DNA of 64,000 nucleotides from a virus, in the IMG/VR virus record IMGVR_UViG_3300042197_004075, positions 1-64,000 of that record; one strand, 5' to 3'. The notes under the pieces are model-generated. The model saw only the letters and a list, made by a program, of their open reading frames with translations, did not search any database and had not been told where the DNA came from. This document shows, in pieces, positions 617 to 58,268 of the stretch (positions are counted from its first letter, which is position 1; each line of letters begins with the position of its first letter). The translations under genes were made by a program, and so were the position numbers.

Positions 617-829
617 TTATGATCGTTTTTTTCTTTTATTTTTAGGAATTGTATTGCTTGCCATAAGATCGCTTACTGGCCCTGCCAATCCGTGATCGCC
701 AACAGAATAAAATTGAGGAAATTTTCTTGTGAATAATCCACCAATAGGCAGACTAAATGTTGCAACATCAGCAGTTGATGTTGACACTTCGGATAATTCC
801 AGAAATTCTTTGAAATTCAATTTATTCAT
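617..829 (-). CDS. Hypothetical protein, candidate internal head protein
   Basis: N-terminus MNKLNFKEFLE resembles the T4 capsid-targeting sequence; overlaps the upstream stop. Confidence 0.6.
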   Translation of the reverse strand: MNKLNFKEFLELSEVSTSTADVATFSLPIGGLFTRKFPQFYSVGDHGLAGPVSDLMASNTIPKNKRKKRS

Positions 830-1221
830 GTGGCTTTTTCCTTTTCAGGAATGGTATCCCAACCAGTTAGTCCTTGAGCCACAAGTCGAAAGTAGGTGTC
901 TGCGTCAACTGTTCCTAGAACATGCATTTTTTCAACCTTGCGACCATCTTTATAAAGCATATTACCTTCATCATTCTTGAGGAATATTCGATACTTGTTA
1001 CCGCATGGCTCTACAGAAAATTGTCCAAGTCCAATTTGTGAACTTGTTTTAGGATCTAGCTTTGCAATAAGTTGTGCAAAAATTGGAACACTTTTTGTAA
1101 TTGCATCATTTACAACATTTGTTGGAATATTCAGTACAGATGTATATGCTTGTTTTATTGTGGCCAGTTTAGCTTTGGGATCAGCTTCTTGTTCAGCCAA
1201 AAATTGACGGAATGTTGTCAT
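826..1221 (-). CDS. Hypothetical protein, candidate internal head protein
   Basis: Start moved to MTTFRQFLAEQE; TATATA 6 nt upstream. Confidence 0.65.
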   Translation of the reverse strand: MTTFRQFLAEQEADPKAKLATIKQAYTSVLNIPTNVVNDAITKSVPIFAQLIAKLDPKTSSQIGLGQFSVEPCGNKYRIFLKNDEGNMLYKDGRKVEKMHVLGTVDADTYFRLVAQGLTGWDTIPEKEKAT

Positions 1222-1251
1222 ATAGAATATATACAATAGAAAGACTAAAAT

Positions 1252-1611
1252 ATGAATAAATTTAGAGAGGTTATCTTTCATAAACAAAAAATTTTGTTAC
1301 AGGAAAAATTATGTTCTGTCTTGAATAAACACGCAGACAAAAAAGGTTTTATTATGTATTTTACACTTGGAGACAAGTGTTTTGCAACTACAGAAGATGG
1401 TAGAATTAGTTTCAAAAACCTTAAAAAACCAGTTAAAGGAACAGTCATTGAGGATGATTTTGAAGCAATAAATCTTGACAAATTAGTTAACGGGCAAAAC
1501 AATACTCAAATAATAGAAAAATCTGCGATTCCAAAAATTTCTGTTGTTGATTTTGATGAAATTTGTAAAATATTAAGTGACAAATATAAATTATTTACAT
1601 TACCAAAATGA
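1252..1611 (+). CDS. Hypothetical protein
   Basis: ORF coupled to the next gene by an ATGA overlap. Confidence 0.65.
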   Translation: MNKFREVIFHKQKILLQEKLCSVLNKHADKKGFIMYFTLGDKCFATTEDGRISFKNLKKPVKGTVIEDDFEAINLDKLVNGQNNTQIIEKSAIPKISVVDFDEICKILSDKYKLFTLPK

Positions 1612-2210
1612 AAAAAAGATTAAGAGAATATTTGTGTTTTGTTTGTTCAGAAGAATTTGAAGACTATGATTCTATGAAATCACATATTTTTTCAAATCAT
1701 CGTGAAGGTGATGACTTTGTCGTTTGTACAAAATGCTTTTGTCCTTTAAGAGATTTAATCAATCATTACAAGACAAAACATATTGGTTGTCAAATACCAC
1801 CAAATTCGCAGATCAGACCAATTATTCTAAGAGATTGCTACAAAAATAAAAAAACAAAATTTAAACAAGGAAATTATATTTCTCAAAAAACAAACAGAAA
1901 TGTAAATTTCAGAAGTGGTCTAGAACTAAAATTCTATGAACAATTAGAAAAAAATCCAAAAGTTAGAGACTACAGGGTTGAAAATATTAATATTGAATAT
2001 TTTTTTGAAGGTACAAAACATACTTACACACCTGATGTTTTAGTTGAGTACACAGATGGTAAAATTGAAATGTGGGAAATTAAACCAAAGTCTCAAACTA
2101 AATGGCCAAAAAACTTAGCCAAGTGGCAAGCTGCCAATATATTTTGCAAAAATAGAAATTGGGAATTTATTGTGGTAACAGAAAATGCGCTCAAGAAGAA
2201 AAAACCTTAG
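1608..2210 (+). CDS. T4 gp4-like head completion / TnsA-N PD-(D/E)XK nuclease with N-terminal C2H2 zinc fingers
   Basis: RSGLELKF...YTPD...EIKPKSQT...NLAKWQAA..FC...W.F.VVTE; two N-terminal CxxC...H...H motifs. Confidence 0.8.
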   Translation: MKKRLREYLCFVCSEEFEDYDSMKSHIFSNHREGDDFVVCTKCFCPLRDLINHYKTKHIGCQIPPNSQIRPIILRDCYKNKKTKFKQGNYISQKTNRNVNFRSGLELKFYEQLEKNPKVRDYRVENINIEYFFEGTKHTYTPDVLVEYTDGKIEMWEIKPKSQTKWPKNLAKWQAANIFCKNRNWEFIVVTENALKKKKP

Positions 2211-2470
2211 TTAATCATCCCATCTGTTATTTCAATGTGCAGCTTGTTTTTAGTTATAGAATACTTAATCATATGCCAACTTGAATCATCTATTGGGCAC
2301 TTTCTTTGTTTGTTAAATTCCTCTAGTGCTGTATTTTTATAATGCTGAATGACTTCTAATGCTCTTTTCAATTTTTTAATATCAAAGTCTGATAAAGAGA
2401 CAGTAATATGCAAATTATTTACATGTTTGCCAAGTGTGTTTTCTTTTGTAACAACTTTGTTTTTATTCAT
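2207..2470 (-). CDS. Hypothetical protein
   Basis: ORF coupled to the dNMP kinase stop. Confidence 0.6.
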   Translation of the reverse strand: MNKNKVVTKENTLGKHVNNLHITVSLSDFDIKKLKRALEVIQHYKNTALEEFNKQRKCPIDDSSWHMIKYSITKNKLHIEITDGMIN

Positions 2471-3087
2471 GTTAAATTATCAACCTTTGATTTAATGAAT
2501 GGGAACAATTGGTTTGTAACTCTGTCTTCAAGTTTCTTTAAATCGCCATCATTAATTAGAAAATAATCAAACATTGGATATAATTCATCGTAAACTATAG
2601 GTCCGTCATATCCCATGTCGGCAAAGTGACATGCAATTTGACCCATAATTTTCTCGCTATCGTTTTGATCATTGTTAATCATATCAGGTCTTATTAAACA
2701 AATATTTAGACCTTGTCTTCGTTTGATATTAATTGCCTCGTTGCAATACCTTACATCTGAAATAACAAGATCATTGACAGGATCTTTGAGGACAAACTCA
2801 ATCCAAACATCTGATTTTATTTGTCTAAATCCGTCACCGATCATCTGCAAACCTTTTCTTACTGACACCAAAAAACTTTGAGGTGCTTGCTCTTTTCTTT
2901 TCCAGTCTTCAATAAAATCCAAATCTACCTTGAAGGCTTGAGCAAATATTTTTTTAACATTTCCGGCAAACGAGTCTCTTACAAATGAGAAATTACCCAT
3001 ATTATTCAATAATGGTAACAAAAATCCCGCTACTGTATCTTTTCCAGATGCGGCTTGACCGGCCAAGCCGATAATTACCTTTGACAT
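2467..3087 (-). CDS. Deoxynucleoside monophosphate kinase (T4 gp1-like)
   Basis: IIGLAGQAASGKDT P-loop, SFA..VK, R.GLQ..G..FR, VISDVRY.NE, ND G.L motifs; AGGAG RBS. Confidence 0.88.
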   Translation of the reverse strand: MSKVIIGLAGQAASGKDTVAGFLLPLLNNMGNFSFVRDSFAGNVKKIFAQAFKVDLDFIEDWKRKEQAPQSFLVSVRKGLQMIGDGFRQIKSDVWIEFVLKDPVNDLVISDVRYCNEAINIKRRQGLNICLIRPDMINNDQNDSEKIMGQIACHFADMGYDGPIVYDELYPMFDYFLINDGDLKKLEDRVTNQLFPFIKSKVDNLT

Positions 3088-3126
3088 AATTTCTCCTTCA
3101 CTTTATTATCTTATAGAGGTTTACTA

Positions 3127-3393
3127 ATGTCGCAAGAAAAAAAATGCAAATCGTGTTTGTGTTACGACAGGGGGTCAGGATTTTGTCAAGTCAATATTCT
3201 CATAAATGATAAGAAATTAAAATTACCTGTATTTCAAGACGATTCTTGCCACTATATTGCGCTTGGAGTAAGCGTTGAACAAATTCGGTTATGGGAAGAA
3301 GAAAAACAAAATGGTGAAAAAGTAGTCAAGATTGAATATCCTGTTGGGTTTTTTGGGTCTGATGACAAGAGTCCAGCAAAAAATCTTCCTTAA
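3127..3393 (+). CDS. Small Cys-rich hypothetical protein
   Basis: CKSC..Y.....C...C; GAGG RBS. Confidence 0.65.
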   Translation: MSQEKKCKSCLCYDRGSGFCQVNILINDKKLKLPVFQDDSCHYIALGVSVEQIRLWEEEKQNGEKVVKIEYPVGFFGSDDKSPAKNLP

Positions 3394-5326: not shown

Positions 5327-5375
5327 TAAAAATCAAAAATTTGCACAATTATTTTTTTATAATTTGCGGCAAAAT

Positions 5376-5398: not shown

Positions 5399-5439
5399 CC
5401 CCCTTATGAGTGTCAGTCCGAATCACCCCCTTTTAGATC

Positions 5440-12344: not shown

Positions 12345-12980
12345 ATGGAATACAGTTTTAAACAATTTCTAAAATGTAAAGATTTTTATTTTTCCGAAAT
12401 CTTTGTTGGAAATCAAGAAAGCAAACGGAAAACAACTGATTTGAGTCCATTGGCAAGACAATTTGAAAATTTAACAAAATCAATACTAGGTGACAAAACA
12501 GTAAACAAATTATTTTTCAATCCTATCAAACAAATTGATGAAAATTTAATAGGATTTGCAAAATTATACAAACTTGCAGTTGGGCCTACAAAAACAGCAG
12601 CCATGGACACTTTCAGAGATATAAAAACTTATTTGACCACAAATAATAAAGACGAAAAAGAACAAGCTCTAAAATCCTTTTTGAGTAATGCTGATGAATT
12701 AGTAAGACTAGTTATAATAAATCCTATTTTTACCTTGGCTCCTACAGAAATAGCTTTTCAAGCCTTTGCAGAGACACTTGGTGTTAAACCTACTTTTGTA
12801 CATAAAATGATTTTCGCATTTATGACAAAAATTCCTTACTATGTTTTCATGTATGTTTTACCCATGCTTGATTTGCTTTCAGAAGTTGAAAATTTACAAG
12901 TTCAACAAACAGCAAAAAGACTTTCAACCAAAATTAAAAAATCTATGCCTAAAACAGCTTTGTATAAACCGGCAGCTTAA
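12345..12980 (+). CDS. Hypothetical protein, candidate internal head protein
   Basis: MEYSFKQFL start; TAAATA 5 nt upstream. Confidence 0.7.
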   Translation: MEYSFKQFLKCKDFYFSEIFVGNQESKRKTTDLSPLARQFENLTKSILGDKTVNKLFFNPIKQIDENLIGFAKLYKLAVGPTKTAAMDTFRDIKTYLTTNNKDEKEQALKSFLSNADELVRLVIINPIFTLAPTEIAFQAFAETLGVKPTFVHKMIFAFMTKIPYYVFMYVLPMLDLLSEVENLQVQQTAKRLSTKIKKSMPKTALYKPAA

Positions 12981-15624: not shown

Positions 15625-16179
15625 CTAGTAGAACAGAAAATCGTGTTCTGACAAGGATACTTGACCAACCCTAATCTGTTTTTCTTTAGTAATTTTTTTA
15701 CCTATAAAGCGACTAGCATTCCAAATGATTCTTTTAGCATAAATTTTGAACTTTGTATTGATGATTATTGGTGAAGTTTTTGAAGGCATTTCATCTTTTG
15801 GGATAAATTTGACGGCTAACATTTCAAGTATTTCTTCTTGTTCTTCACCAAATTTACGCTTATATGCACCATGCTGTGTTTTTTTACTCCACAAATATTG
15901 CAAAGATTTATTTAATTCTGACCAAATATCATTAGATTCAATATACTTGTCTAATTTTTGAAAAACAGCTTCAATCCATGTTTGACGCTTATAATAGGAA
16001 CCAGCACGAATAACACTCATAAGTAGTTCTTGCTTAAAATCTTCAATTTCATGTTGATGATTGTTTTTACTATTATTTTGCATAAGCTGCCAAGAAACAA
16101 AATAACACAATTGACTGAATTCTTCTTCTAGAAGTTCATACTCTTCGGCAGTAATCGAAAAATTCTTGAAAGTGTTCAT
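15625..16179 (-). CDS. Hypothetical protein, weak sigma-factor region 2 resemblance
   Basis: EDFKQEL...IRA and KFKIYAKRIIWN; AAGGAG RBS. Confidence 0.45.
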   Translation of the reverse strand: MNTFKNFSITAEEYELLEEEFSQLCYFVSWQLMQNNSKNNHQHEIEDFKQELLMSVIRAGSYYKRQTWIEAVFQKLDKYIESNDIWSELNKSLQYLWSKKTQHGAYKRKFGEEQEEILEMLAVKFIPKDEMPSKTSPIIINTKFKIYAKRIIWNASRFIGKKITKEKQIRVGQVSLSEHDFLFY

Positions 16180-17660: not shown

Positions 17661-17716
17661 GTGTTTCTAGTCCACTTCGTGGACTAGAAACACGATCTAG
17701 CACTTCGTGCTAGATC
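17661..17716. repeat. Two abutting perfect palindromes with 3-nt loops
   Basis: GTGTTTCTAGTCCAC-TTC-GTGGACTAGAAACAC (15 bp) then GATCTAGCAC-TTC-GTGCTAGATC (10 bp). Confidence 0.95.
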
Positions 17717-17739
17717 AGTTAATGGTTTTTTTATCTAAA

Positions 17740-17829
17740 TTAAACCAATTAAACCAATTAAACCAATTAAACCAATTAAACCAATTAAACCAATTAAACC
17801 AAATAAACCAATTAAACCAAATAAACCAA
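17740..17829. repeat. 9-bp tandem repeat, 10 copies
   Basis: (T/A)TAAACCAA x10. Confidence 0.95.
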
Positions 17830-17838
17830 ATTAACAAG

Positions 17839-17863
17839 ACGCACGAAGCAAATCCTGTGCCAA
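17839..17863. repeat. 25-bp inverted repeat, right arm
   Basis: ACGCACGAAGCAAATCCTGTGCCAA. Confidence 0.9.
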
Positions 17864-18068
17864 AATATAATAAAATTAGAAAAAAATTTGTTTTTTAGTA
17901 GCTTTTTTCAAATCTTAATTATTTGCGTTTTAAACGACTTTGTATTAAGATTTGATTGTTGACACGGATTGGGTGCAAAAGTGGCCTTAAACGCAAAAAT
18001 TAAGCCCTTAAATTGAAAGATAACTTGGCCCACATGACTTTCAACTTGTGTTTGGAGGAACGCACCTT

Positions 18069-18770
18069 ATGATTCCTAAAGTTTATACATCGAACAACGA
18101 AGTGATTCTCAAATATTGTAATGATAAAGTGACACTTTTGGCATATGAATTATCATGTTTTTACATGAATTGTGAAATGTTTTATTTTCCAAAAATTACA
18201 CACAGCAAATTTAATGTCATGAAACAGCCGCAAAAGCAATTCCTATTTAAACACATTTTAAAAATGGTAAATACCTTGAAGTCGAAATATTTACCAACTG
18301 AATTCATGGGTTATATTAAAGCGCAATTTGAAATTATGAAATTAAATGAAAACCACAATCCCATGGTTACGCCAAATATGCTTCATGGAAAAAAGGCTGA
18401 ATATCGATATGCAGTTTGGTTACAAATGCTTGCAGATAAACAAATTAAGGAAAACGAAAATACCTCAAAAATTTCTTTGAAGTATCTTGATCACTTAATG
18501 AAAATTTCAAAAAACAATATTAAAAATGTATTCGGTGAAAATGTTAAATTTCAAGATTTTGTCGATCATCAAAAAAAACTTATTTTGATGGTCAAATCAA
18601 AACAAATTGCACATGTGTATTGTTTTGCTAGTGTTTGGATAAAAAAACTTGAAAAAAGTGTTGTTGATGAAATAACAAAATTTAGCGAATCAGAAAATCT
18701 TTATAAATGCAATATTGATGATATCAATCAAATATATTTGAAATATTTTGAAAATGAACTTAATATGTAG
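18069..18770 (+). CDS. Hypothetical protein adjacent to the origin-like region
   Basis: GGAGG RBS before MIPKV. Confidence 0.75.
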   Translation: MIPKVYTSNNEVILKYCNDKVTLLAYELSCFYMNCEMFYFPKITHSKFNVMKQPQKQFLFKHILKMVNTLKSKYLPTEFMGYIKAQFEIMKLNENHNPMVTPNMLHGKKAEYRYAVWLQMLADKQIKENENTSKISLKYLDHLMKISKNNIKNVFGENVKFQDFVDHQKKLILMVKSKQIAHVYCFASVWIKKLEKSVVDEITKFSESENLYKCNIDDINQIYLKYFENELNM

Positions 18771-19575
18771 TGAATATTTTTTCAAGAATAGTTACTATTT
18801 CTTGTGGTTCTTGATTTGGCGCAAACCACTCATCCCATTCAGGGGTTTGAGGACGATATTCGTAGCCTTGATTTGATGACGAATGCTCGGCTCCCCAACT
18901 ATGAATCAATCCAGCTTTGGGATCAAAGCAAACATAAACATTAAATTGATTTACTTTTTTATGATCCGGTGCTTCTAAGCCGTAGCCTTTGTAGCTAAAA
19001 TAAATTAAATAATTGTTAACATCCAATTGAATAACCCCTTGAAAATTCATCACTTGCGGATGTTTCAATTTCATGTTTGAGGCTATTTTGATGACAAGAT
19101 CTTGTAAATCTTGATAAGTAACATCTGGGCTTTCAAGGTCTGTTGAATCAATAAAAGTAATAATTTCATTTGCTCTAATAGCAAGCATTTTTTCTACAGC
19201 AATGTCTTGTATTGTTAAATGTTCGTAGTCGTTAATAACTGGAATGGCATATCTTGTGATCCACTTTGAATCTCCTTGAGCGTCTTTAATCATTCTTTGT
19301 ATTGTGATTCTGCATGATCCAAGTGGAGAAAATTCAACCCTAAGTGATCCCACTTGGTCTTTTGGCCCATAAGTGACCATGTTCCCAAAATCTTTAACTG
19401 GTATCTTGGTTCCAACATTTCCAAGACTCACAATTTCATCCAAGCAAGTTTCAACTTGTAGTTGTTCAATTGGATGTTGTTCGTAATTTAATGCGATTGG
19501 TGAGGTTTTTTTATTTGGATTTGTAAACCCAAAAAGCTTATCTGGTGAAGTGCCAATCCATTCGTAAAATTTCAT
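18760..19575 (-). CDS. Hypothetical protein, candidate virion protein
   Basis: MKFYEWI start; TATAAATA upstream on the minus strand (19613-19620). Confidence 0.75.
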   Translation of the reverse strand: MKFYEWIGTSPDKLFGFTNPNKKTSPIALNYEQHPIEQLQVETCLDEIVSLGNVGTKIPVKDFGNMVTYGPKDQVGSLRVEFSPLGSCRITIQRMIKDAQGDSKWITRYAIPVINDYEHLTIQDIAVEKMLAIRANEIITFIDSTDLESPDVTYQDLQDLVIKIASNMKLKHPQVMNFQGVIQLDVNNYLIYFSYKGYGLEAPDHKKVNQFNVYVCFDPKAGLIHSWGAEHSSSNQGYEYRPQTPEWDEWFAPNQEPQEIVTILEKIFTTY

Positions 19576-19619
19576 AGGTAGCCTGTTATAGAATAGTTAC
19601 TTGTATATTATATATTTAT

Positions 19620-19904
19620 ATGCAAACATTTAAACAATACATGGAAGCAAAACATCCTAGGAATACTTTGGACTCTAAAGAAAAATCATTCGCAGCACAA
19701 CTTAAATTAGGTAATATAACGCCAGAAGGTATGCAAACCAACAGAATATCTGGAACTGATAAAGCTGAATTTATGGCCAACCTAAGAAATTGGAGTGTTT
19801 TTCAAAAATTACCTAAAGAAAAACAAGAAACAATTTTGGATACAATCAATGATAAGCCCGATGTAACAAGTTTTGCTGATATTTGTGATTTGATTTATGA
19901 TTAA
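19620..19904 (+). CDS. Hypothetical protein, candidate internal head protein
   Basis: MQTFKQYMEA; TATATA 5 nt upstream. Confidence 0.7.
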   Translation: MQTFKQYMEAKHPRNTLDSKEKSFAAQLKLGNITPEGMQTNRISGTDKAEFMANLRNWSVFQKLPKEKQETILDTINDKPDVTSFADICDLIYD

Positions 19905-23231: not shown

Positions 23232-23648
23232 TTATATTCTATTTTTAACATTTAAATAGAATAAATAACTATCTTTCCCACCGGGTTTTAAGCTTTTTGC
23301 ATTTTGTCTATAATCAATTACAAGTTTTGTTTTTTCACTTTCATACATCAAAATATCTTTCAATCGTGATAAAACTGTAGTAATAAATTCTTTTGATCCA
23401 GTAATACGAATTCCGTCTTCTTGAATTGTAGTTCCTTTGTGGGTTGCCTCAATTGGTCGTAATGCTAATGGAATACTTGGAGCTATAGTTTGCCAAAATT
23501 TAAGTGTCTCTTTTTTGCTTGCTTTCCATGGCTTTAATTTTCTTGCATAAAAAGAATAAGGAGTTGGCGCAGAAACAGGAGCAACATCTGCTGTTGTTGA
23601 TGTCGGAGCAAAATCAACTTCTTCCAAAAATTGGTAAAAACTTTTCAT
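23232..23648 (-). CDS. Hypothetical protein, candidate internal head protein
   Basis: MKSFYQFLEE start. Confidence 0.75.
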   Translation of the reverse strand: MKSFYQFLEEVDFAPTSTTADVAPVSAPTPYSFYARKLKPWKASKKETLKFWQTIAPSIPLALRPIEATHKGTTIQEDGIRITGSKEFITTVLSRLKDILMYESEKTKLVIDYRQNAKSLKPGGKDSYLFYLNVKNRI

Positions 23649-23652
23649 TTGT

Positions 23653-23662
23653 AATATATATT
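23653..23662. promoter_or_regulatory. Putative bidirectional late promoter
   Basis: Palindrome AATATATATT in an 18-bp gap; TATATA core is 6 nt from each divergent ATG. Confidence 0.6.
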
Positions 23663-23666
23663 CAAT

Positions 23667-24071
23667 ATGATATCAATTTATGAATATAGAATTAAAAATA
23701 ACTTGTTTATGGAAGAGGATGCACCAGCGGGGGGCGCACCAACACCCGCAGCTGGAGGAGATGCAGGAGGATTAGGTGGAGGCGCACCACCACCGGCAGC
23801 TGGAGGAGATGCAGGAGGACTTGGTGGAGGTTTAGGTGGAGGGTTAGGAGGTGGAGGGCCAACACCACCGGCACCTGATATGGGTGGTGGTTTAGGAGGT
23901 GGATTAGGTGGAGCGGTGGGGGCTGGAGGGGCTGTATCTGATATAACAACAAAACTAGAGATATATAATTGGGATTCAATATTACAAGAATATTTCAGAA
24001 ATAAAGACAAAGAATCTGATGAAAAAAAGGATCGGGATACTATCAAGAGATTATCTTCACAGTTTTTTTAA
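23667..24071 (+). CDS. Gly/Pro-rich low-complexity protein
   Basis: Repeated PAAGGDAGGLGG and GGGL units. Confidence 0.75.
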   Translation: MISIYEYRIKNNLFMEEDAPAGGAPTPAAGGDAGGLGGGAPPPAAGGDAGGLGGGLGGGLGGGGPTPPAPDMGGGLGGGLGGAVGAGGAVSDITTKLEIYNWDSILQEYFRNKDKESDEKKDRDTIKRLSSQFF

Positions 24072-31297: not shown

Positions 31298-31834
31298 ATG
31301 GAAGACTTTAATTTCAAATCATTTTTACTAAATGAAAACAAAGTATACTTGGCACAAGAAATTGGTGAAATCTTAAATTCTGTGCAAGAGCTTAATGATG
31401 AAGTTGATAAAATTGGTACAAGAAATTTAGTACGATATACACAAGTTATAATTAACAAAGCTAGAGGAATTTTACAAGGACATTGGGGGGATGAAAATCG
31501 TAAGTGGTTAACCAAACTTCAAAAGTGTGCTGTGGCATTGGCAAAAGCTATAGATGAAAATGATAATACTGAAGAAGTATTGAAATCAGTTCAAACTGAA
31601 GTAGAAAATATGTTGAAAAAGATGGGGGTGCCATTTAATACAATTTCACCATCTAGTCAGCCAAAACAGCAAGACAATAGCGCAACGACGGCAGCAATAC
31701 CACAACAAGTTGGTGGCGAGACTCCCGCAGGACAACCGGCACCAACATTGCAGCCTGACTTAGCGGGACAAGAAGGTATGCCAGCATCACCGACTGGAGC
31801 AGTCAATCAAATGCCTGACAATCTAGGTCTATAG
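31298..31834 (+). CDS. Hypothetical protein, candidate internal head protein
   Basis: FNFKSFLLNE N-terminus; TAAATA 6 nt upstream; P/Q/G-rich tail. Confidence 0.75.
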   Translation: MEDFNFKSFLLNENKVYLAQEIGEILNSVQELNDEVDKIGTRNLVRYTQVIINKARGILQGHWGDENRKWLTKLQKCAVALAKAIDENDNTEEVLKSVQTEVENMLKKMGVPFNTISPSSQPKQQDNSATTAAIPQQVGGETPAGQPAPTLQPDLAGQEGMPASPTGAVNQMPDNLGL

Positions 31835-46826: not shown

Positions 46827-47492
46827 TTACATTTGGAAATTCATAGCTGGTGCTTGTGCTTGTGCATTTCCAGCGGCAGGAGCTTGTTGACCTCCTGCTG
46901 GAGGTGCGGCTCCACCAGATTCCCCGCCCATGTTCATATCAAGATCCATACCGGAATCTGCGCCTTGAGCCTGATCACCACCCGCAGCGTCACCTTCGGG
47001 TTTATTGCCTTCCTCACCTTCGCTATCGGCCTCTTCTTCATCTTCATCCTCCACGGAATCAGCAAGTTCACCAATCTTATTTACTGCTTGTTTAAGTCTT
47101 GAAACAGTATCTGAATCTAGTGTATTATTGTTATCTTGTGCTGCTGAAAGAACTTGATCTAAAAGTCCTTTGATCTCGCCTAGAGATTCTTTTGTTTCAT
47201 TCTTGCCAACTGAGCCAACTGATTTAGAAAGTTGTGAATCGCCTGTATCTCCCATATCGCTCATAGTTCCTTGCTGATCAGCAGGAACTTGGCCAGAAAC
47301 TCCCTTCATCCCACCAGCAGAAGCCCCTGAATTATCTCCACCAAAATCAACACCGCCACCAGCAGCATCTCCACCCATGCCGCCTCCCATATTCCCACCC
47401 ATGGAGCCACCCATGTCACCACCAGCGGCAGCATCTTGCTCAAAAAGTTTTTTAGCTTGAATTATTTGATACATTTCATAAAAAGTTTTCAT
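46827..47492 (-). CDS. Gly/Met/acidic low-complexity protein, candidate internal head protein
   Basis: MKTFYEM start; GAGGAG RBS; TAAATA at 47511-47516 (minus). Confidence 0.8.
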   Translation of the reverse strand: MKTFYEMYQIIQAKKLFEQDAAAGGDMGGSMGGNMGGGMGGDAAGGGVDFGGDNSGASAGGMKGVSGQVPADQQGTMSDMGDTGDSQLSKSVGSVGKNETKESLGEIKGLLDQVLSAAQDNNNTLDSDTVSRLKQAVNKIGELADSVEDEDEEEADSEGEEGNKPEGDAAGGDQAQGADSGMDLDMNMGGESGGAAPPAGGQQAPAAGNAQAQAPAMNFQM

Positions 47493-48520: not shown

Positions 48521-49156
48521 ATGACTATTTACAAAAAAGATGGTTCTATTTATAAATTTTCAGAACCAAATAAAATTATGATTCAACAAAACTTATGGGA
48601 TAATTATATAACCCATAATTTGAATTACCTTTCTCAATATATATTAATGGCAGAGGAAAAATCTTTTTATTCAAATGTACTAGATTTAACAACAAAAATA
48701 AAAAAGCTATCTGAAATTAAAACAAATGTTGATATATCTAATCAACAACAGTTAATTGAAATTGCCAAAGAAGTTGAGCAAAATCAACAATTAGAACAGA
48801 TTACAGAGATAAAACCAATTGTTCAATCAACACAAGATACTAGATTAAAGTTACAAAAAACAATTGCACATTGTTTAATTGCTAAAATAAAAGAAAAAAC
48901 TGATGATTTATATGGAGATATTAACAGAAAGATTGAATACTCAGATTCATTTACTGTAGAAATTATAATTGTTGAAACACAAGATCTTAAAATTAAAATT
49001 TTTACAACTTATGAAAATTTTTCCATGGACACAATTTTGTATCCTAAAGACACGGAAAAGAGATGGTGGCAAATTGTTAATATCATACCTAATCCTAAAG
49101 GATTCTTTTTGGAGTGTATTCCATCAAAACTACAACCTAGTTTTTCTATGAAATAA
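48521..49156 (+). CDS. Hypothetical protein
   Basis: Start moved to MTIYKKDG; DDLYGD motif; possible distant gp14 paralog. Confidence 0.7.
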   Translation: MTIYKKDGSIYKFSEPNKIMIQQNLWDNYITHNLNYLSQYILMAEEKSFYSNVLDLTTKIKKLSEIKTNVDISNQQQLIEIAKEVEQNQQLEQITEIKPIVQSTQDTRLKLQKTIAHCLIAKIKEKTDDLYGDINRKIEYSDSFTVEIIIVETQDLKIKIFTTYENFSMDTILYPKDTEKRWWQIVNIIPNPKGFFLECIPSKLQPSFSMK

Positions 49157-51776
49157 GTCTTTGCAATGCATTTTTTATTTGCGGAAATGAACTCATTTTT
49201 TTCAATTTTAATATATTGGTAATTTTTTTTCTTATAGATTCATTTATCGTAAAAACTTGTGTGTGTAGATTATTCATAACATCATATTTTTCAGACAAAT
49301 TTGATTGAAGTGCAGCATTTCCGACTCTAAAATCACTTATGGACTGTAGCAATGATTCTAGTATTTGATTGTTGTTTTCAATAGTTTTTACTAAACTTTG
49401 AATTGCTCTATTGTAGACTGTACTTTCTGGATTAGCAAACTTAATTAACAATTGCATATCTTCCAAAGAAATAGCAGGTTTCATTCCATTTCTGATTTGT
49501 TGTAACAAAAGATATGCTTGTTTGTAATCAATTCTTGTGGATGCTACTGTACAATTTGCATCTGCGTCAGGGGTGCCCAGACGAACTATTTCGGTTTCAA
49601 CAGCAGAATCTAAGTCTTTGCCACTTCTCGTCACACCATTTATAAATGATGAGGCGCATAATTCAGCTGATGTACGAGCATCTGGCCCTGAAAATTTAGG
49701 AGTATAGGCGACCACTAAACGACTAAACAGTTGTAGTCTGTTTGGATTGACACCATCAGCATCAGCAATTCTATTTCTGTATTCAGCCCTGTTGGCAACA
49801 TCGTGCAACCTACCCTGATCAGCTTCCTCACCTTCAGTTGCTGGTTCAATAAACATAGCACCACTATAAAACCTGTTTATTATGTGTTTTATTCTATTGC
49901 AGTCATAAAAAACAGGTAATCTTCTTTGCTTAAATGTCCCACAACCAAAATCAAGTTGTATCATTCTCGTAAATAAATCATTAAGAATTTTTTTGACTTC
50001 ATTTACAGGATCGCTTTTAACACGAATGTAATTATCAGTTAGAAGTTCTGCACAATGATCGTGCAAACGCTTGTAGTCTATTTCGTTCATACATTTATGC
50101 CATTCAGACCATTCAAATGTAAATTCGGCTCCATGAGCTTTTTCTGTTTTTGTTGTCTTAAGTTTTTTCTCAAGATAATTAACAACCAACCTAGACATTG
50201 AATAATTGCCGTCTTCAGTTAAAACTGGTTGAAGAACTCCATCACCACTTGTTTCAAAATTATATTTTTTATAATCTAATATTGATCGTATATTTTGGAT
50301 TTTTGACAAGAAACCTGATTCTGTTGCAATAACACCAGATCGTTGAGGAGAATCTTGATTTGGAATTAAACCACCGCTGATAATTCTTAAATTCTTTTTC
50401 AAACTTGGGTCTTCTTTAAAACTATCCGGTGTTATCCACATAAATGGTCTATATTTACCTTTTTGTCCTTGTGGTAAATGCAAATCTTCATACCTGTGCA
50501 AATTACCTGTAGCATATTCTGAATCTTGTAAATCTGGTCTGTCGTGAATTGGATACAACATCCTTCCACGCTGTAAATCGGGGATTTCAATTATTTCTGG
50601 TTCACCATAAGAATCTCTGCGATTTTTTTTCCTCATCACTTTAACTTGTTTCATTTTGATGCGAGGAGGCAATTTTTCATCTGAATTGGTCTCGGCACTA
50701 TAACGAGGGAATCTGTTGTGTGGATCAACAAATGTGTTGTTTCTTCTCGCTATTCGCAACTCTGATTTACTTAAAACTATACTCAAATATTTATTTCTAC
50801 TTCTGTCTCTTAGGTATGTTTGAAGTTCTGTTAATCCTTTAAGCCTTGTAGCAGGAACTGAAATTTCAAGAATTCTATCTTTTATATATTGAATAATGCC
50901 AATTGCGCCTTTGACTGATCGAGCCAGTTCCTCAATATTTTCATCTCTTATCAAAGAAATCATTCTGTTGTACAATTCTCTGTTTGCAGAATACCATGTA
51001 ATTAAATTTCTTGCAGAAGAAAGATTTCTAAAAAAATTAAAATAGGTTTGCCACCAATGTTTTTCATAAAGTTCATTTACTTCTGTGCCATCAATATTGA
51101 TAAAATCTTTTTTTTCACTTTCTTTTGGTGCGACTGGTGGTAAATGATGCAAATCAGCCCCAGTAAATTCTATCCATCGTCTTAAAGCTTTTCGGATTGT
51201 ATCTCTGCTTGGGAACTGAAAACCTCTTGAGCTAAATTTTGATTTTGTTTGTTCATTTGTTATGTTATGAATTCTTACATTGGTTAAATCATATCCTTGT
51301 GGATTCATGGGACTTACTTCAAGTGATTTAACTAGTTCTTCAATATATGAATTTGCTTTTATAAACGCTTCGCTAGTTTTCCTTTCTGTTCTCCCATGTG
51401 AATAATTTAAAGCACGAACTGTAAAATCTATATCTCGATTTCGGACATTAATGTGATAGAATCTTTCTTCAGCCAAATTTATAGCTTGTAGTAAAGCTCT
51501 TTTCTTTTTAATTTGCAAATCTAAATCAACGCTCTCAAGATTTTTGAGAATTTCATGATATTTGGCTTGTACAAATTCATTATAGCCAGCTTTTTCTCGT
51601 TCAATTTCCCTATTTCGTAAACTACTATAAAGAACAGTATTGTATCTGAGCCACAATGCATCTACCCAATATTCTGCTGGGAATTGTTCAAGAAATGTTA
51701 TATCGCCACTTGAAACAGTAAACAGGAAAGGTTTTCTATTTACTGCACCAACTATGTACTCGTTAAATAAACGCAT
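49146..51776 (-). CDS. 876-aa hypothetical protein
   Basis: Long ORF, GAGG RBS, MRLFNEYI start; no recognised motif. Confidence 0.8.
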   Translation of the reverse strand: MRLFNEYIVGAVNRKPFLFTVSSGDITFLEQFPAEYWVDALWLRYNTVLYSSLRNREIEREKAGYNEFVQAKYHEILKNLESVDLDLQIKKKRALLQAINLAEERFYHINVRNRDIDFTVRALNYSHGRTERKTSEAFIKANSYIEELVKSLEVSPMNPQGYDLTNVRIHNITNEQTKSKFSSRGFQFPSRDTIRKALRRWIEFTGADLHHLPPVAPKESEKKDFINIDGTEVNELYEKHWWQTYFNFFRNLSSARNLITWYSANRELYNRMISLIRDENIEELARSVKGAIGIIQYIKDRILEISVPATRLKGLTELQTYLRDRSRNKYLSIVLSKSELRIARRNNTFVDPHNRFPRYSAETNSDEKLPPRIKMKQVKVMRKKNRRDSYGEPEIIEIPDLQRGRMLYPIHDRPDLQDSEYATGNLHRYEDLHLPQGQKGKYRPFMWITPDSFKEDPSLKKNLRIISGGLIPNQDSPQRSGVIATESGFLSKIQNIRSILDYKKYNFETSGDGVLQPVLTEDGNYSMSRLVVNYLEKKLKTTKTEKAHGAEFTFEWSEWHKCMNEIDYKRLHDHCAELLTDNYIRVKSDPVNEVKKILNDLFTRMIQLDFGCGTFKQRRLPVFYDCNRIKHIINRFYSGAMFIEPATEGEEADQGRLHDVANRAEYRNRIADADGVNPNRLQLFSRLVVAYTPKFSGPDARTSAELCASSFINGVTRSGKDLDSAVETEIVRLGTPDADANCTVASTRIDYKQAYLLLQQIRNGMKPAISLEDMQLLIKFANPESTVYNRAIQSLVKTIENNNQILESLLQSISDFRVGNAALQSNLSEKYDVMNNLHTQVFTINESIRKKITNILKLKKMSSFPQIKNALQRLIS

Positions 51777-52745: not shown

Positions 52746-53210
52746 ATGTTAAGTTGGAAAAATTATAAATCTATTGTTTCAGAAGCAGTACAAAATGTAC
52801 GCTATTCTGTTGAAATTAATTATGATACTTCACAAATAGACGCAGTAAGTGGATTTACAAAAATTTGTTTGGGATACATAAGTGCCGCACTTAAGAAGAT
52901 GGATTTTCATACAAAAATTATTCTTACACAAAAACCATTTAGAGTTATAGTCGCATCAAGAAATTGGGATGATGGTGAGTGGGTTGGCATGATAAGTTAT
53001 AATGATGAACTAGATTGCTTTGTTGTTTCAAGAGGATACTACAATAAAATGAACAAGACTGTAAGGGTTGAAAAAACTGTACAAATGCCTCTTGAATATA
53101 GTGCAAAAGACATTTCTAAGTATGTTTTCCAAATGATGAAAGATTTAAAAGGTGTAAAAGATAAGCACTCTCCTGAACACAGGAAAGTGCATCTCAGGAA
53201 AAATTCTTAA
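52746..53210 (+). CDS. Hypothetical protein
   Basis: AGGA RBS; MLSWKNYKSIVSE start. Confidence 0.7.
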   Translation: MLSWKNYKSIVSEAVQNVRYSVEINYDTSQIDAVSGFTKICLGYISAALKKMDFHTKIILTQKPFRVIVASRNWDDGEWVGMISYNDELDCFVVSRGYYNKMNKTVRVEKTVQMPLEYSAKDISKYVFQMMKDLKGVKDKHSPEHRKVHLRKNS

Positions 53211-53212
53211 AT

Positions 53213-53587: not shown

Positions 53588-53636
53588 TTTTCACCTACTA
53601 ATATAATAGTATTATAATCAATTTTTTGGTGCATAT

Positions 53637-53981: not shown

Positions 53982-53995
53982 CAATAGTAAAATAA

Positions 53996-54029
53996 ATATA
54001 GAGCATCAGTTTGTGCTGATGCTCTATAT
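53996..54029. terminator. Bidirectional terminator between convergent genes
   Basis: 14-bp stem ATATAGAGCATCAG/CTGATGCTCTATAT. Confidence 0.75.
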
Positions 54030-54053
54030 GTTTTCAATAAAAAACCTAAATAA

Positions 54054-54269
54054 TTAGTTGGCTTCTGAAGGTCCGCCCTTTGCTACTTTAGTTGCCTGAA
54101 GTTTAAATGGCGCATCAGCAGCAATAGGTGTAAAATAGTTATTTGGATACTGCGCTCTTACATAAGCGTCAGGATAAGCATATGGAGCAAGACCACCTCT
54201 TTTTGCGTTCTCGCTCACAGTTGGAACGGACAAATTATTATCAGCAGCCCAATCGGAAAATGTTTTCAT
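54054..54269 (-). CDS. Small hypothetical protein, candidate internal head protein
   Basis: MKTFSDW start; GAGGAG RBS; TAAATA at 54292-54297 (minus). Confidence 0.75.
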   Translation of the reverse strand: MKTFSDWAADNNLSVPTVSENAKRGGLAPYAYPDAYVRAQYPNNYFTPIAADAPFKLQATKVAKGGPSEAN

Positions 54270-54327
54270 AATAAATCTCCTCAACAGTATGTATTTAGGA
54301 AGATAAGTTTTTTTACTTATTTATTGC

Positions 54328-54900
54328 ATGAGTAAAATTTTTTTAAAATATCACCCCGCTGAAATAATTGAGAAAGAACCATCTTTAATTTTTGAAGAAT
54401 ATCGTGGATGTAGCTCATGTAACACATTTATGATGCCTGAATTTTTTCCAACATCTGACTCAAAAGTTTGTATATTTTGTCATCGCAGAATAAAAAATAA
54501 TAAAAACTTTACTTTATTTACATTCAAAAATATTTTTTTATTTCTTTCCAAATTTGGTTTTGACTCTAAAGTTTTAACTAAAATAGAATCAAAACAAATT
54601 AAAATTCTTATGAAAGAAGATTGTTTTGATTATGTTGATCAAAATATGATTTGGTATGTTAACAAAGATGAATTAACAAATGCCAGCAAAAGTTTAATTG
54701 ATAGTGTGTATGAAAATTTTGTTAAACTTGAAATAATTGATTCAAAAGTATGGAATATGCATATGGAAAATTTGAAGGGTAAATTATTTTCACAGCACAA
54801 GAATATTGAAAAACTAATTATGCCAAAATTTCTTGCTTCAAATCCGTATTTTGATAGCAGAGCATCAAAATTTTTGAATAGGAATCACATTTTTTCTTGA
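54328..54900 (+). CDS. Hypothetical Zn-finger protein
   Basis: CSSC...CIFC. Confidence 0.65.
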   Translation: MSKIFLKYHPAEIIEKEPSLIFEEYRGCSSCNTFMMPEFFPTSDSKVCIFCHRRIKNNKNFTLFTFKNIFLFLSKFGFDSKVLTKIESKQIKILMKEDCFDYVDQNMIWYVNKDELTNASKSLIDSVYENFVKLEIIDSKVWNMHMENLKGKLFSQHKNIEKLIMPKFLASNPYFDSRASKFLNRNHIFS

Positions 54901-54964
54901 TTTTGTTATTTTATCAACTAAATTAATCCTGAGCTTTTTTTGCTCAACCCTTTTGGAGAATTAT

Positions 54965-55345
54965 ATGACAACTGAAAAGACTGCATCGAAGAAGCGAACG
55001 ATTAACAATAACAGGCCAAGTGCCAAGATTCTAGCGAACGCTATTCGCTTTAAGGTCACCACTAAGCTGAAGAACAACAGCGAAGTGTATGAAGCAACCG
55101 CTAACATCCCCGGTTTTCAACCAACGAAGGTTGTTCGCACAGATGGTTCGACTGTCTTTACTACTCGCAGCAGCCTCACGAAGGCTTGCCGAGATCGTGC
55201 AGCACAATATAAGCGAACACCAGTTTTTGATTACGGAACAATTTCAACAACCACCAAGGCAAAAATTGTGCAACGAGTAAGCGGAAAGGTTCCCGCTGCA
55301 ACTGCTGGTGCCTGTCCTGTTACTGGCGCAGTTGCACGATCATAA
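54965..55345 (+). CDS. Small basic protein, possible nucleic-acid binder
   Basis: GGAG RBS; K/R/T-rich; own promoter-like motif and terminator. Confidence 0.75.
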   Translation: MTTEKTASKKRTINNNRPSAKILANAIRFKVTTKLKNNSEVYEATANIPGFQPTKVVRTDGSTVFTTRSSLTKACRDRAAQYKRTPVFDYGTISTTTKAKIVQRVSGKVPAATAGACPVTGAVARS

Positions 55346-56794
55346 ATCTAAATCTTTGATAGCAAACCCAATCGTTTCCCTAAACGATTGGGTTCTTTCT
55401 TTTCTATAAATTTTGACATTTTTGTACCAATCTGTCGTTGCGCCAAATTTACCCCAACGCCAGTCTGGTTTATCTGAACAAAATAAAATTACTGGAGTCC
55501 CAACTCCCCCAGCAATATGAACGGGCAAACTATCAACAGACATGATCAAATCCATTTCTGACATTAATTTTGCTGTTGCACTTATATCTGTTAGTTTATC
55601 AGCCAAGTCTATTATGTTATACTTTTCAAAATCTTTACTGAAATCTACTGGCTCTTTTTGATGCGGATATTTTCTAGCTCGTCTATCTTTTTGAAATGAA
55701 TAGATTTCATGTTTTTCAAAATCAAGTTGATCAGCAAAATCTGTGAAAAATGTACTTCTTTGATAGTCCATAGGAGCGGCAGGATTTCCCGCCCAAATTA
55801 ATCCAATTTTTTTCTTTTTATTTTTTGGATAATTATAGTCACAAATTTTGTAAGCATCAGGAATAGTTTCAATTCCTAGATGAAAAGGCAAACTTAAAAG
55901 TGATATTCCAAGTTTTGTGTCGGAATTAATTTGTGGTTTCCATCTAATTTTGTCTGTCATTATTGAAATAAAGTTTTCAGGAGCGAAGAAATATGAATTC
56001 TTATAAATGCTTTGAAATTTTTCAAGAAAGCGCAAGTACATCAGGTTATCGCCAGCACCTTGCTCACAGAATACTACAAATTTCAAATCTTCTGACAAAT
56101 TGTCTGGCTTTAACAAATTATTTACGATCATAAATTTTATTAAATTATCATAACAGTAATATCTTTCTTCATAATAAGTCCATGCTTCCTTATACTTTTT
56201 TTGGAAAGCTAAACAATGGAATAAATCTACGCTAATTTCTTTGTCGCAACTTGGAATAGCAACAGCAGTTTTAAAGCATTTTTCAGCATCTTGATACTTA
56301 CTCATTTCTGCAAGACAGCAACCTTTGTTTGCGTGATGAAACCATTCGCCTGATTTCATTTGAAGTGCGTTATCAATAAATTCAAGTGCTTCATTATATC
56401 GATTTAATCTAGATAGTGTCAAAGCATGATTTGATCTAAATACTGCCTTGTCAGGGTTCATCTCAATAGCTTTTAAGGAATAAACCAAAGATTCTTCCAT
56501 TCTATTATTGTTGTTTAAAAATAAAGCGTAATTATTGAAGTCATCTGGATTGTTATAATTTCTGCAAAGCTCAAGGTATAGTTTTTCAGCCTCTTCTAGC
56601 TTATTCAATTTTGTTTTTACCAAAGATAGAAGTTGATAAAAACAATGTCGATCAGATACTTTTATAGTCTGCTCAAGAAGTTGTTCAGAAGTTTTATAAT
56701 CTCTGGCTTTAAGATAATAGGTTACTGTTTGAAACGCTTTGTCGAGAAGTTCATCAAGATCAATAGTTTCACAATTTTTGTCATTATTGTTCAT
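55340..56794 (-). CDS. TPR-repeat + glycosyltransferase family 9-like protein
   Basis: N-terminal TPRs, YEER, EQGAGD, LLSLP, IGLIWAGNP, SVDS..VHIAG..G, DWRW. Confidence 0.88.
   Translation of the reverse strand: MNNNDKNCETIDLDELLDKAFQTVTYYLKARDYKTSEQLLEQTIKVSDRHCFYQLLSLVKTKLNKLEEAEKLYLELCRNYNNPDDFNNYALFLNNNNRMEESLVYSLKAIEMNPDKAVFRSNHALTLSRLNRYNEALEFIDNALQMKSGEWFHHANKGCCLAEMSKYQDAEKCFKTAVAIPSCDKEISVDLFHCLAFQKKYKEAWTYYEERYYCYDNLIKFMIVNNLLKPDNLSEDLKFVVFCEQGAGDNLMYLRFLEKFQSIYKNSYFFAPENFISIMTDKIRWKPQINSDTKLGISLLSLPFHLGIETIPDAYKICDYNYPKNKKKKIGLIWAGNPAAPMDYQRSTFFTDFADQLDFEKHEIYSFQKDRRARKYPHQKEPVDFSKDFEKYNIIDLADKLTDISATAKLMSEMDLIMSVDSLPVHIAGGVGTPVILFCSDKPDWRWGKFGATTDWYKNVKIYRKERTQSFRETIGFAIKDLDL
55365..55404 (+). 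terminator. Intrinsic terminator inside the 3' end of the convergent gene
   Basis: 13-bp stem AACCCAATCGTTT/AAACGATTGGGTT followed by a pyrimidine run. Confidence 0.7.
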
Positions 56795-56837
56795 GTTTTT
56801 TGCTCCACTATCATAAATAGAGTAGGGGGCAAAATAT

Positions 56838-57143
56838 ATGGGTTGTGGATGCAGAAAAAATAAAGGTGCTTTACCCGCAAGAAATGTCAACTTAAACCCT
56901 ATTAGAAATGTTGTTTCTGGTGGGAGAAATATAGTTGCTCCTCAACCACAACAGGCCAATATTGTACCGCAAAACAATCCTTCTAAATCAAATCAACCAC
57001 AGGCAAAACCGGGTGCTGATCCCAAAGTTGCCAATATGAATCTCAATGTCCAAAAAAATCCACAAACTACTGGTATGACAAAAGAAAGGCTCGAAATAGA
57101 AAAAAGAAGAAGAGAAGCTATTAGGCGAGCTTTAGGAAAATAG
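56838..57143 (+). CDS. Hypothetical protein (MGCGC start)
   Basis: TAAATA upstream; Q/N/P-rich middle, basic tail. Confidence 0.7.
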   Translation: MGCGCRKNKGALPARNVNLNPIRNVVSGGRNIVAPQPQQANIVPQNNPSKSNQPQAKPGADPKVANMNLNVQKNPQTTGMTKERLEIEKRRREAIRRALGK

Positions 57144-57185
57144 TTGTTGTTGGATAAATAATTTATTCAAGATTGGAGACATAAA

Positions 57186-58268
57186 ATGATTAATTATGAT
57201 AAATGGAAACTTCTTAATGAAAACTTCATGATTTCACAACCAATTGGTGGAATCAAATCTAATAATGGTTTCCTCGCATATAACAAGTTACACGAAGATG
57301 AAGAAATTGAGGAAGAAGAAGTCGAAGAAGAAGACATGGATGATGAAGGCGAAGAAGACATGGAAGACATGGATGACGAAGGCGACGAAGACATGGAAGA
57401 CATGGATGACGAAGGCGACGAAGACATGGAAGACATGGATGACGAAGGCGACGAAGACATGGATGACGAAGATATGGATGACATGGATGACGAAGATATG
57501 GATGACATGGATGACGAAGGCGGCGAAGACATCGATGACATGGATGACGAAGATGAACACCTAATGGGTCGTGTTCGTAGCATTCACCATCCTGATGCTC
57601 ATAAGCATAAGCATCCTAAGCATCGTGAGCATATGCATGATCGTCCACATCATAAAATGGATGTTGATGAAATTGATTTTGCTAATGCTGCTTCTGAAAA
57701 ATATAGTAAGATGTATGCTAGCTGCGAATCAATGGATTACAAGCTTCCTCCTATGAATGAGTGGCTTGCTAGCGTTAATGGCCAAATGTTTCCAGAACAA
57801 CTTCAGGAATACATCGGTAAGAAAGATGTGTCCATTAATGAGGCTCAAGAAGAAAAATTGACAGGCAAAATGACACAACTAAATCAAAAAATTGATCAAC
57901 TTGCAGAAAAACAGTCAATAACTAGAGTTGAGTTCATGTCTGCTATAAGACATTTCATTCAGGCTCTTGAGCCAAAAGTTTCAGGTGGATTGCCATCAAT
58001 GGCTAAGAGAAGACTTGATCAATTCCTTGAAGAAGTTGCTAAAGTAGTAGAAGACGGCGATTCCAAAAAAGAAGAACCTTCAGAAATGAAGCACATGAAA
58101 AAGGGCAAGGATAAATGTGGTTATTCCATGCGTATGATGGGTATGAATAAGGGTAAAGTTCACCCCAAGCACATGAAAATGTCAAAGAAAAAAATGGGCA
58201 AAGGTTGCATGGATGCCAAGATGAAAGGTCATATGAAATCCCACATGAAAAAAGGCTGGAAGGGTTGA
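57186..58268 (+). CDS. Acidic/His-rich/Lys-Met-rich protein, candidate prohead core protein
   Basis: GGAG RBS; TAAATA at 57155; block-wise composition. Confidence 0.8.
   Translation: MINYDKWKLLNENFMISQPIGGIKSNNGFLAYNKLHEDEEIEEEEVEEEDMDDEGEEDMEDMDDEGDEDMEDMDDEGDEDMEDMDDEGDEDMDDEDMDDMDDEDMDDMDDEGGEDIDDMDDEDEHLMGRVRSIHHPDAHKHKHPKHREHMHDRPHHKMDVDEIDFANAASEKYSKMYASCESMDYKLPPMNEWLASVNGQMFPEQLQEYIGKKDVSINEAQEEKLTGKMTQLNQKIDQLAEKQSITRVEFMSAIRHFIQALEPKVSGGLPSMAKRRLDQFLEEVAKVVEDGDSKKEEPSEMKHMKKGKDKCGYSMRMMGMNKGKVHPKHMKMSKKKMGKGCMDAKMKGHMKSHMKKGWKG
57333..57556 (+). repeat. Coding tandem repeats (33-bp x3 and 24-bp x2 plus degenerate copies)
   Basis: DMEDMDDEGDE and DMDDMDDE units; boundaries approximate. 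Confidence 0.85.

Follow-up and report, generated by a model that had tools for sequence, protein, structure and literature searches.

A probable T4-type capsid-targeting leader on many unrelated proteins of an uncultivated huge-phage clade

The window analysed here is a 64,000-nucleotide stretch of viral DNA, positions 1 to 64,000 of IMG/VR record IMGVR_UViG_3300042197_004075, and forms the start of a 75,060-bp virus contig with a GC content of ~32%. It raises the question of why a dozen or so otherwise unrelated open reading frames (ORFs) should begin with a similar short N-terminal sequence. A sequence-only reading of the window had listed 14 such ORFs, all of which are present with the N-termini and positions given for them, and had likened this tag to the capsid-targeting sequence (CTS) of T4, MKTYQEFIAE. 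The analysis arrives at the same answer with a probability of roughly 0.65: on sequence grounds, the shared N-terminus is likely to be a T4-type CTS propeptide that would be cut by a prohead protease. The presence of a T4 CTS-like tag on many unrelated proteins is itself well supported by the recovery of the T4 internal proteins IPI-IPIII with a matrix built from the phage's relatives, by the conservation of positions 4, 7, 8 and 10, by gp20, gp21 and gp23 genes on the same contig, and by an enrichment of [LIVM]-x-E sites after the tag.

Within the contig, ~12 of ~98 ORFs begin M-x-x-[FYW]-x-x-[FYW]-hydrophobic, and [LIVM]-x-E often comes next. With the expectation taken from internal positions of the same proteins, the regular expression [FYW]x[EQD][FYW][LIMV], applied from residues 3-8, matches 7 of ~100 ORFs (8 with the 1221 start) where 0.31 are expected (p = 4e-8). 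A looser expression matches 16 contig ORFs against 3.2 expected, and the loosest pattern also catches clearly unrelated N-termini. A motif-free count places peaks of aromatic residues at positions 4 and 7 (0.20 and 0.23, background 0.10). Because the regular expressions were written after the examples had been seen, the contig was also scored with a position-specific scoring matrix (PSSM) derived from relatives only. Ten starts exceed the maximum of 4.4 bits found among 315 internal-Met controls, namely 19620, 829, 23648, 68910 (which lies beyond the window), 1221, 12345, 31298, 1252, 54269 and 47492. Start 19575 equals this maximum, and starts 51776, 52746, 57186 and 23667 score weakly, with 51776 backed by its family consensus and 52746 by an orthologue.

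The motif is enriched over internal controls by both the strict pattern and the matrix, and the observation is confirmed for about 12 genes of the contig. Of the 14 listed starts, ten lie at or above the null maximum; the remaining four are weak, two of them being rescued by orthologues. A look-alike at start 16179, absent from the original list, is probably a chance match, because its distant orthologue in LR756511.1, an uncultured phage of 595 kb that is the closest GenBank record (76% identity in the major capsid protein, MCP), lacks the motif. Two further parts of the original description also hold. The mature parts of the tagged proteins are dissimilar, save for low-complexity similarity among those of 23667, 46827 and 57186, and none of the replication and repair genes identified (helicases, UvsX, a polymerase, gp46/47-like genes and ribonucleotide reductase, RNR) has the motif. 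Approximately nine window genes have the tag in exact T4 register, and four are shifted by -1 to +2.

The tag is widespread among relatives of the contig, which number 391 MCP matches in IMG/VR and include contigs of up to 533 kb. In 40 kb of LR756511.1, 9 of ~75 ORFs begin M-x-x-F-x-x-W-hydrophobic. When this stretch is pooled with 80 related IMG/VR loci, 122 of 1407 ORFs (8.7%) start with M..[FYW]..[FYW], compared with 0.77% at internal Met residues. The 122 tagged ORFs form 47 BLAST families, of which ~38 are credible after removal of the portal, whose own conserved N-terminus differs, and of a few hydrophobic or otherwise unrelated ORFs. The consensus of these 38 families is M-[KLIQ]-[TSN]-F-x-[EQ]-[WFY]-[LI]-[EN]-[EN]-[KR]-[ED]; position 4 is F in 34 representatives, Y in 2 and W in 2, and position 7 is W in 20, F in 11 and Y in 7. 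The tag is retained between orthologues that are 26-41% identical, even where the BLAST alignment begins 20-40 residues downstream. Phe at position 4 is encoded by both TTT (43 times) and TTC (19 times), position 7 by TGG, TAT, TTT, TAC and TTC, and position 8 by six Leu/Ile codons. Since synonymous codons vary and F, Y and W interchange, selection is, judging from the codons, on the peptide and not on RNA or DNA. Across the whole of LR756511.1, 23 strict matches and ~13 register variants occur among 1175 ORFs. Cyanophage P-RSM4, a member of the T4 superfamily, shows background only (8 of 240 ORFs with the looser expression), and the expansion of the tag is therefore, on this comparison, specific to the clade.

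In T4 IPIII, residues 4 and 7 of the leader serve targeting and residues 8 and 10 serve processing, and a leader with Asp at position 10 still targets its protein and is not cut (PMC9026906). These same four positions are the most conserved ones in the clade tag. A matrix made from the 38 clade families alone was applied to 285 ORFs called in T4, with 1016 internal-Met controls as the null (maximum 7.2 bits, 99th percentile 1.8). The top four T4 ORFs are gp61.1 (15.7 bits), IPIII (12.9), IPII (10.1) and IPI (7.4), and these four leaders are the only ones in T4 to rise above background. The three ip genes are annotated as such in the T4 record; IPI begins MKTFKEFTST. The 54-aa hypothetical protein gp61.1 (NC_000866.4 18966-19130, minus strand) begins MKTFKEFIKE and outscores IPI-IPIII, and from its leader it is possibly an unrecognised CTS-bearing protein.

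Candidate processing sites are more frequent after the tag than at other N-termini. A [LIVM]-x-E site with its Glu at residues 9-13 is present in 17 of 38 tagged families compared with 8.3% of other N-termini, and Glu falls exactly at position 10 in 10 of 38 compared with 1.9%. The 826-1221 protein fits the site exactly, with LAE at residues 8-10. In 74 clade MCPs, an LLENQ stretch precedes the predicted maturation site, a conserved L-[IM]-N-E and then VSTDT.D[VI]AQF; at the homologous place T4 gp23 reads ...FLTE followed by AEIGG, where it is cut after Glu65. The tagged 617-829 protein contains, after its leader, ...LSE followed by VSTSTADVATF, a copy of the MCP's predicted cleavage site and N-arm. 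In BLASTP its residues 12-51 align with residues 46-88 of the phage's own MCP (E = 7e-5), and the two have the pattern E-VST-x-TADVA-x-F ... R-x-[FY]-P-Q in common. Because one protein carries both the tag and a copy of the MCP site and N-arm, a single enzyme is suggested to recognise the two sites. Possible roles of the 617-829 product are those of a decoy, for the capsid lattice or the protease, or of a minor component of the shell.

Directly beyond the end of the window lies a T4-type head module comprising a gp20 portal with an intein, a protease, a gene in the scaffold position and a gp23 MCP, with profile matches to Portal_T4 (E = 9e-71), Peptidase_S77 (E = 3.9e-23) and Gp23 (E = 2e-86). 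The scaffold candidate, encoded at contig positions 71459-72349 between protease and MCP, is a Glu-rich coiled-coil protein with 18 [LIV]-x-E sites. The window itself encodes further T4-type myovirus proteins, including a tail sheath, sheath stabiliser, tail tube, baseplate hub and neck adaptor. Taken with the 595-kb relative and the contigs of up to 533 kb, the T4-type head module identifies the contig as a piece of a huge phage, a myovirus with a T4-like head. No cultured member of the clade was found, and the MCPs of the nearest cultured phages are at most 43% identical.

By analogy with T4, the tag would be a short amphipathic propeptide, aromatic at positions 4 and 7 and hydrophobic at 8, that attaches its freshly synthesised protein to the scaffolding core while the prohead assembles. 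The gp21-type protease of the same contig would then remove it at the nearby [LIVM]-x-Glu, and the mature protein would remain in the head alongside the DNA. We infer all of these steps, from docking and cleavage to residence in the virion, and likewise any ejection into the host or role against its defences.

Many tagged genes also share an upstream element. The TA(A/T)ATA box noted in the sequence-only reading is borne out, ending exactly 5-6 nt before the ATG at nine contig ORF starts, six of which are tagged. T4 late promoters have the sequence TATAAATA, which the box resembles, and its distance from the ATG suggests that the late mRNAs may be leaderless or nearly so. The spacers at 19576-19619 and 23649-23666 are arranged like that at 1222-1251 (Table 1). 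With spacers of 18-44 bp in three divergent pairs, each promoter must overlap its partner's first codons. The same layout recurs in LR756511.1, for example at 398764/398794 and 473532/473554. Further ATG starts with a box 5-6 nt upstream and no Shine-Dalgarno site are 12345, 31298, 20423, 51857 and 60877. The odds ratio is 41 in LR756511.1, where 15 of 23 tagged genes have a box that ends 3-9 nt before the ATG, as do 50 of the other 1152. Among these 50, ~13 carry a register variant of the tag, and clear structural genes are found in the remainder.

An association of this kind could mean that the likeness is an expression signal, in which the first codons of near-leaderless late mRNAs, or overlapping divergent promoters, constrain the 5' coding sequence. 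This is very unlikely in view of the codons, since synonymous ones vary and F, Y and W interchange although encoded by TTY, TAY and TGG, and in view of T4, whose equivalent leader acts at the protein level. Moreover, the box is missing from 72 of the 92 tagged genes of the IMG/VR loci, many tagged genes of the window have ordinary Shine-Dalgarno sites, and many boxed late genes are untagged. The existence of unboxed tagged genes and boxed untagged genes means that the tag is not a by-product of leaderless expression. A related idea, in which the motif arises from -35 elements of divergent promoters (Gln CAA being TTG on the other strand), was dropped on the codon tally and on the tagged genes outside divergent pairs. 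A compositional accident is scarcely credible. An AT-rich genome with ~32% GC does favour Phe, Tyr, Lys, Asn and Ile, positions 2-3 are biased towards Lys, Asn and Thr, the loosest pattern picks up unrelated starts, and 4 of the 14 original examples score at background. The controls largely refute this account: the enrichment is 10- to 25-fold over internal-Met and internal-position controls from the same proteins, the tag is kept in orthologues of a higher-GC relative, and T4 and the cyanophage lie at background apart from T4's known leaders.

Several observations nonetheless weigh against the capsid-targeting reading. Some window examples are off register by -1 to +2, and two (18760-19575 and 49146-51776) have no nearby [LIVM]-x-E site. 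Only 9 of 16 mature parts are basic, unlike the basic internal proteins of T4. Tagged proteins of relatives include odd cargo such as an FMN reductase, and a match to a Toprim primase, likely a false positive, illustrates that the simple regular expression is not specific. The scaffold candidate has no family match and is called from position and composition alone, and the close association with near-leaderless starts means that the first codons could have some part in expression. Some of these points would also fit a docking or sorting helix meant for elsewhere, such as the tail or baseplate, a membrane assembly site, a chaperone or late-protein quality control, with the likeness to T4 being convergent. 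Several tagged genes adjoin tail and neck genes, some tagged proteins lack the Glu site, and an FMN reductase and a HAD phosphatase would be unusual capsid cargo. Another destination is nevertheless unlikely, because the clade matrix specifically recovers T4's packaged internal proteins, the conserved positions are T4's targeting and processing determinants, and [LIVM]-x-E is enriched after the tag. In addition, one tagged protein copies the MCP cleavage site and one tagged family sits between portal and protease. A T4-type CTS therefore remains the favoured reading of the shared N-terminus.

In the relatives, the tag is an add-on ahead of complete domains, which begin at residue 19 (FMN_red), residue 23 (Peptidase_C39) and residue 18 (an RNA-repair-type HAD). 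Other tagged proteins of relatives include a PolyA_pol-type (CCA-adding or poly(A)-polymerase-type) nucleotidyltransferase and a protein with a weak, sub-threshold ART-PolyVal match. The latter recalls T4 Alt, a packaged ADP-ribosyltransferase; a PDB sequence search with this ART-like protein was empty. A further tagged family, small and conserved, has a constant place between portal and protease, in the opposite orientation. This family and the 876-aa protein of the window are more likely to be prohead-core or structural proteins than effectors, and the tagged set as a whole is probably mixed, consisting of core or structural head proteins, low-complexity acidic or Gly-rich filler, small basic proteins similar in kind to the T4 internal proteins and, in relatives, enzymes.

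Table 1. Tagged genes of the window and other features of the contig and head module. Register is relative to the T4 leader.
Position	Strand	Product or element	Leader, score and other features
617-829	-	70-aa protein	MNKLNFKEFLELSE; register +2; PSSM 18.1 bits
826-1221	-	131-aa ORFan	MTTFRQFLAE then QE; exact T4 register (F4, F7, L8, E10); PSSM 15.9 bits
1222-1251		Divergent spacer, 30 bp	TATATA-type boxes a few nt before each ATG; no Shine-Dalgarno site
1252-1611	+	119-aa ORFan	MNKFREVI (F4, V7); weaker match; PSSM 7.2 bits
7083-9365	-	UvsX-like recombinase	Split by LAGLIDADG homing-endonuclease/intein segment
12345-12980	+	211-aa basic protein	MEYSFKQFLK...FSE; register +1; PSSM 14.9 bits
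18760-19575	-	271-aa conserved protein	MKFYEWIG; register -1
19620-19904	+	94-aa protein	MQTFKQYME then A; PSSM 20.6 bits, top score of the contig
23232-23648	-	138-aa basic protein	MKSFYQFLEE; PSSM 17.1 bits; box ends 6 nt before ATG
23667-24071	+	134-aa Gly/Ala/Pro-rich acidic protein	MISIYEY...LFME then EDAPAGG; weak match; PSSM -0.6 bits
31298-31834	+	178-aa acidic protein	MEDFNFKSFLLNE; register +2; PSSM 9.4 bits; box ends 6 nt before ATG
46827-47492	-	221-aa Gly-rich acidic protein	MKTFYEMYQ...LFE then QDAAAGG; PSSM 5.0 bits
49146-51776	-	876-aa conserved basic protein	MRLFNEYIVG; weak; PSSM 1.3 bits
52746-53210	+	154-aa basic protein	MLSWKNYKSIVSE then A; weak alone under PSSM
54054-54269	-	71-aa basic protein	MKTFSDWAAD...VSE then N; PSSM 5.6 bits
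57186-58268	+	360-aa protein	MINYDKWKLLNE then N; weak match, outside top PSSM scores
contig 70785-71456		gp21-type prohead protease	Peptidase_S77
L001:2033-4561	+	gp20 portal	Intein splicing domain

Carriers in the window are small basic proteins (9 of 16 have a mature pI of 8.7-10), together with two Gly/Ala-rich acidic proteins, one hyper-acidic protein, and the 271-aa and 876-aa proteins. None has a credible match in Pfam, PHROGs or NCBIfam, the 31298-31834 protein giving only a sub-threshold hit to TssR_VWA; the 1252-1611 protein, whose gene is the divergent partner of the 1221 gene, matched neither Pfam nor PHROG families. The TATATA box of 826-1221 ends 6 nt before its ATG, and this gene has only three close homologue clusters, with an indel right after LAEQE. 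At 12345-12980 a TAAATA-like box ends 5 nt before the ATG, and orthologues begin MHTFSEFVFIRE and MDFSFINYV.

The 18760-19575 protein has an LR756511 orthologue that starts MKSFASWFNE, in exact register. Its AlphaFold2 (AF2) model (pLDDT 75) is disordered over residues 1-41 and confidently folded from about residue 44; a Foldseek comparison of the model with the PDB returned no fold match (best E 6e-3, TM ~0.2). Its divergent partner, 19620-19904, has a box ending 5 nt before the ATG. Orthologues of 23232-23648 begin MLSFREWCEQ, MKRFADYMRE and MKSFMQFIEE, and its LR756511 orthologue keeps the tag although the alignment begins only at residue 38. The 23232-23648 protein was also considered as a copy of the MCP N-arm and rejected as not significant (E = 0.58).

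At 23667-24071 the box ends 6 nt before the ATG, the N-terminus is kept in locus L003, and the protein has low-complexity similarity to that of 46827-47492, a gene with a Shine-Dalgarno site and a TAAATA box ~19 nt upstream. In the 57186-58268 protein the leader is followed by an acidic run of ~130 residues of Asp, Glu and Met and then by a His/Lys-rich tail. These three products may be space-filling or counter-ion proteins of the head interior. LR756511 orthologues start MEFKKFLITE for 31298-31834, MLNFKDYVEE (exact register) for 52746-53210 and MVKTFMQWAEE for 54054-54269. The 876-aa family has the consensus MQLFQEYVVG, in which F4 and Y7 are nearly invariant, and its gene adjoins neck and head genes. 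The AF2 model of the 876-aa protein is of low confidence (pLDDT 61, pTM 0.29), and the ESM Atlas offered nothing usable for it.

Elsewhere, the window encodes several helicases and a polymerase in addition to its intein-bearing UvsX. A megablast of the RNR gene against a phage collection gave no match. At 17707-17898 on the plus strand, in the gap upstream of the polymerase-like gene, a short ORF contains a run of LNQ repeats (CTN AAY CAR units). The 15625-16179 product was considered as a gp55-like late sigma factor and rejected, having no similarity to T4 gp55. In the head module, the portal N-terminus (MPIWSDFFKLFTYA...) is strongly conserved across related loci and fits the simple aromatic expression while being a distinct motif. 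No internal motif repeats were found in the protease, the scaffold candidate or a 587-aa head-module protein. LR756511.1 contains a second, diverged Peptidase_S77 match (242621-242989, minus strand, E = 3.5e-9, in a 304-aa frame) that is distant from its head module and recalls the paralogous prohead protease reported for SPN3US-like giant phages.

A broader claim, that a widespread huge-phage clade marks dozens of unrelated families, enzymes included, with a T4-type CTS that serves as a common address, is tentative and may well not hold. If it is true, the packaged and injected proteome of uncultivated phages would become predictable from sequence, including counter-defence or RNA-repair activities delivered with the DNA, and the tagged genes would form a late regulon of near-leaderless mRNAs. 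Should the tag work as in T4, a single motif would be enough to list the proteins that reside in the head, and that may be injected, for uncultivated huge phages beyond the reach of virion proteomics. Such a list would supply candidate early-acting effectors and anti-defence proteins. The T-even internal proteins would then understate both the age and the spread of the T4 packaging address, and the natural leader variants could serve the engineering of protein delivery.

Among known systems, T4 offers the closest parallel. There, as in the clade, a 10-19-residue N-terminal leader, M-K-T-[YF]-x-E-F-[IL]-x-E, precedes otherwise unrelated proteins in a phage with a gp21-family protease and gp20 and gp23. 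Positions 4 and 7 are aromatic and position 8 is hydrophobic, and a Glu near 10 follows in part of the clade's families. The differences are mainly ones of scale and variety. T4 has three known carriers, plus gp61.1 by sequence, against ~12 within 75 kb and no fewer than 38 families in total for the clade. Unlike those of T4, the clade's carriers include enzymes and proteins of 700-1076 aa, and their genes are dispersed through both replication and structural modules. Position 7 is most often Trp, and the register shifts by -1 to +2. Many mature parts are acidic or of low complexity rather than basic, and in many of the genes a box like that of late promoters precedes the ATG by 5-6 nt.

Other systems resemble the clade less closely. 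In the literature searched, CTS-like leaders are described only for T-even phages, phiKZ-like giant phages and P1. The phiKZ-like phages likewise load many head proteins with N-terminal propeptides that are removed after Glu by a gp21-related protease (PMC5694885). Their propeptides, however, share no short consensus; those of SPN3US and phiKZ mostly exceed 100 residues, and a single one has ~20 (PMC5694885), whereas the clade leaders are ~10-20 residues long and conform to one consensus. In phage P1, an N-terminal segment of ~30 residues suffices to send the large anti-restriction protein DarB into the capsid, from which it is delivered together with the DNA (PMC9024508); this signal is unrelated in sequence, serves one protein only, and depends on other Dar proteins for loading rather than on a T4-type core and protease. 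The hallmarks of Sec/Tat or lipoprotein signal peptides, a basic N-region and then a hydrophobic core of ~10-15 residues, are absent from the clade leaders, which are amphipathic and Glu/Lys-rich at positions 9-12, with no hydrophobic run. Set beside these systems, the clade represents the known CTS mechanism in a much expanded form rather than a mechanism of a new kind.

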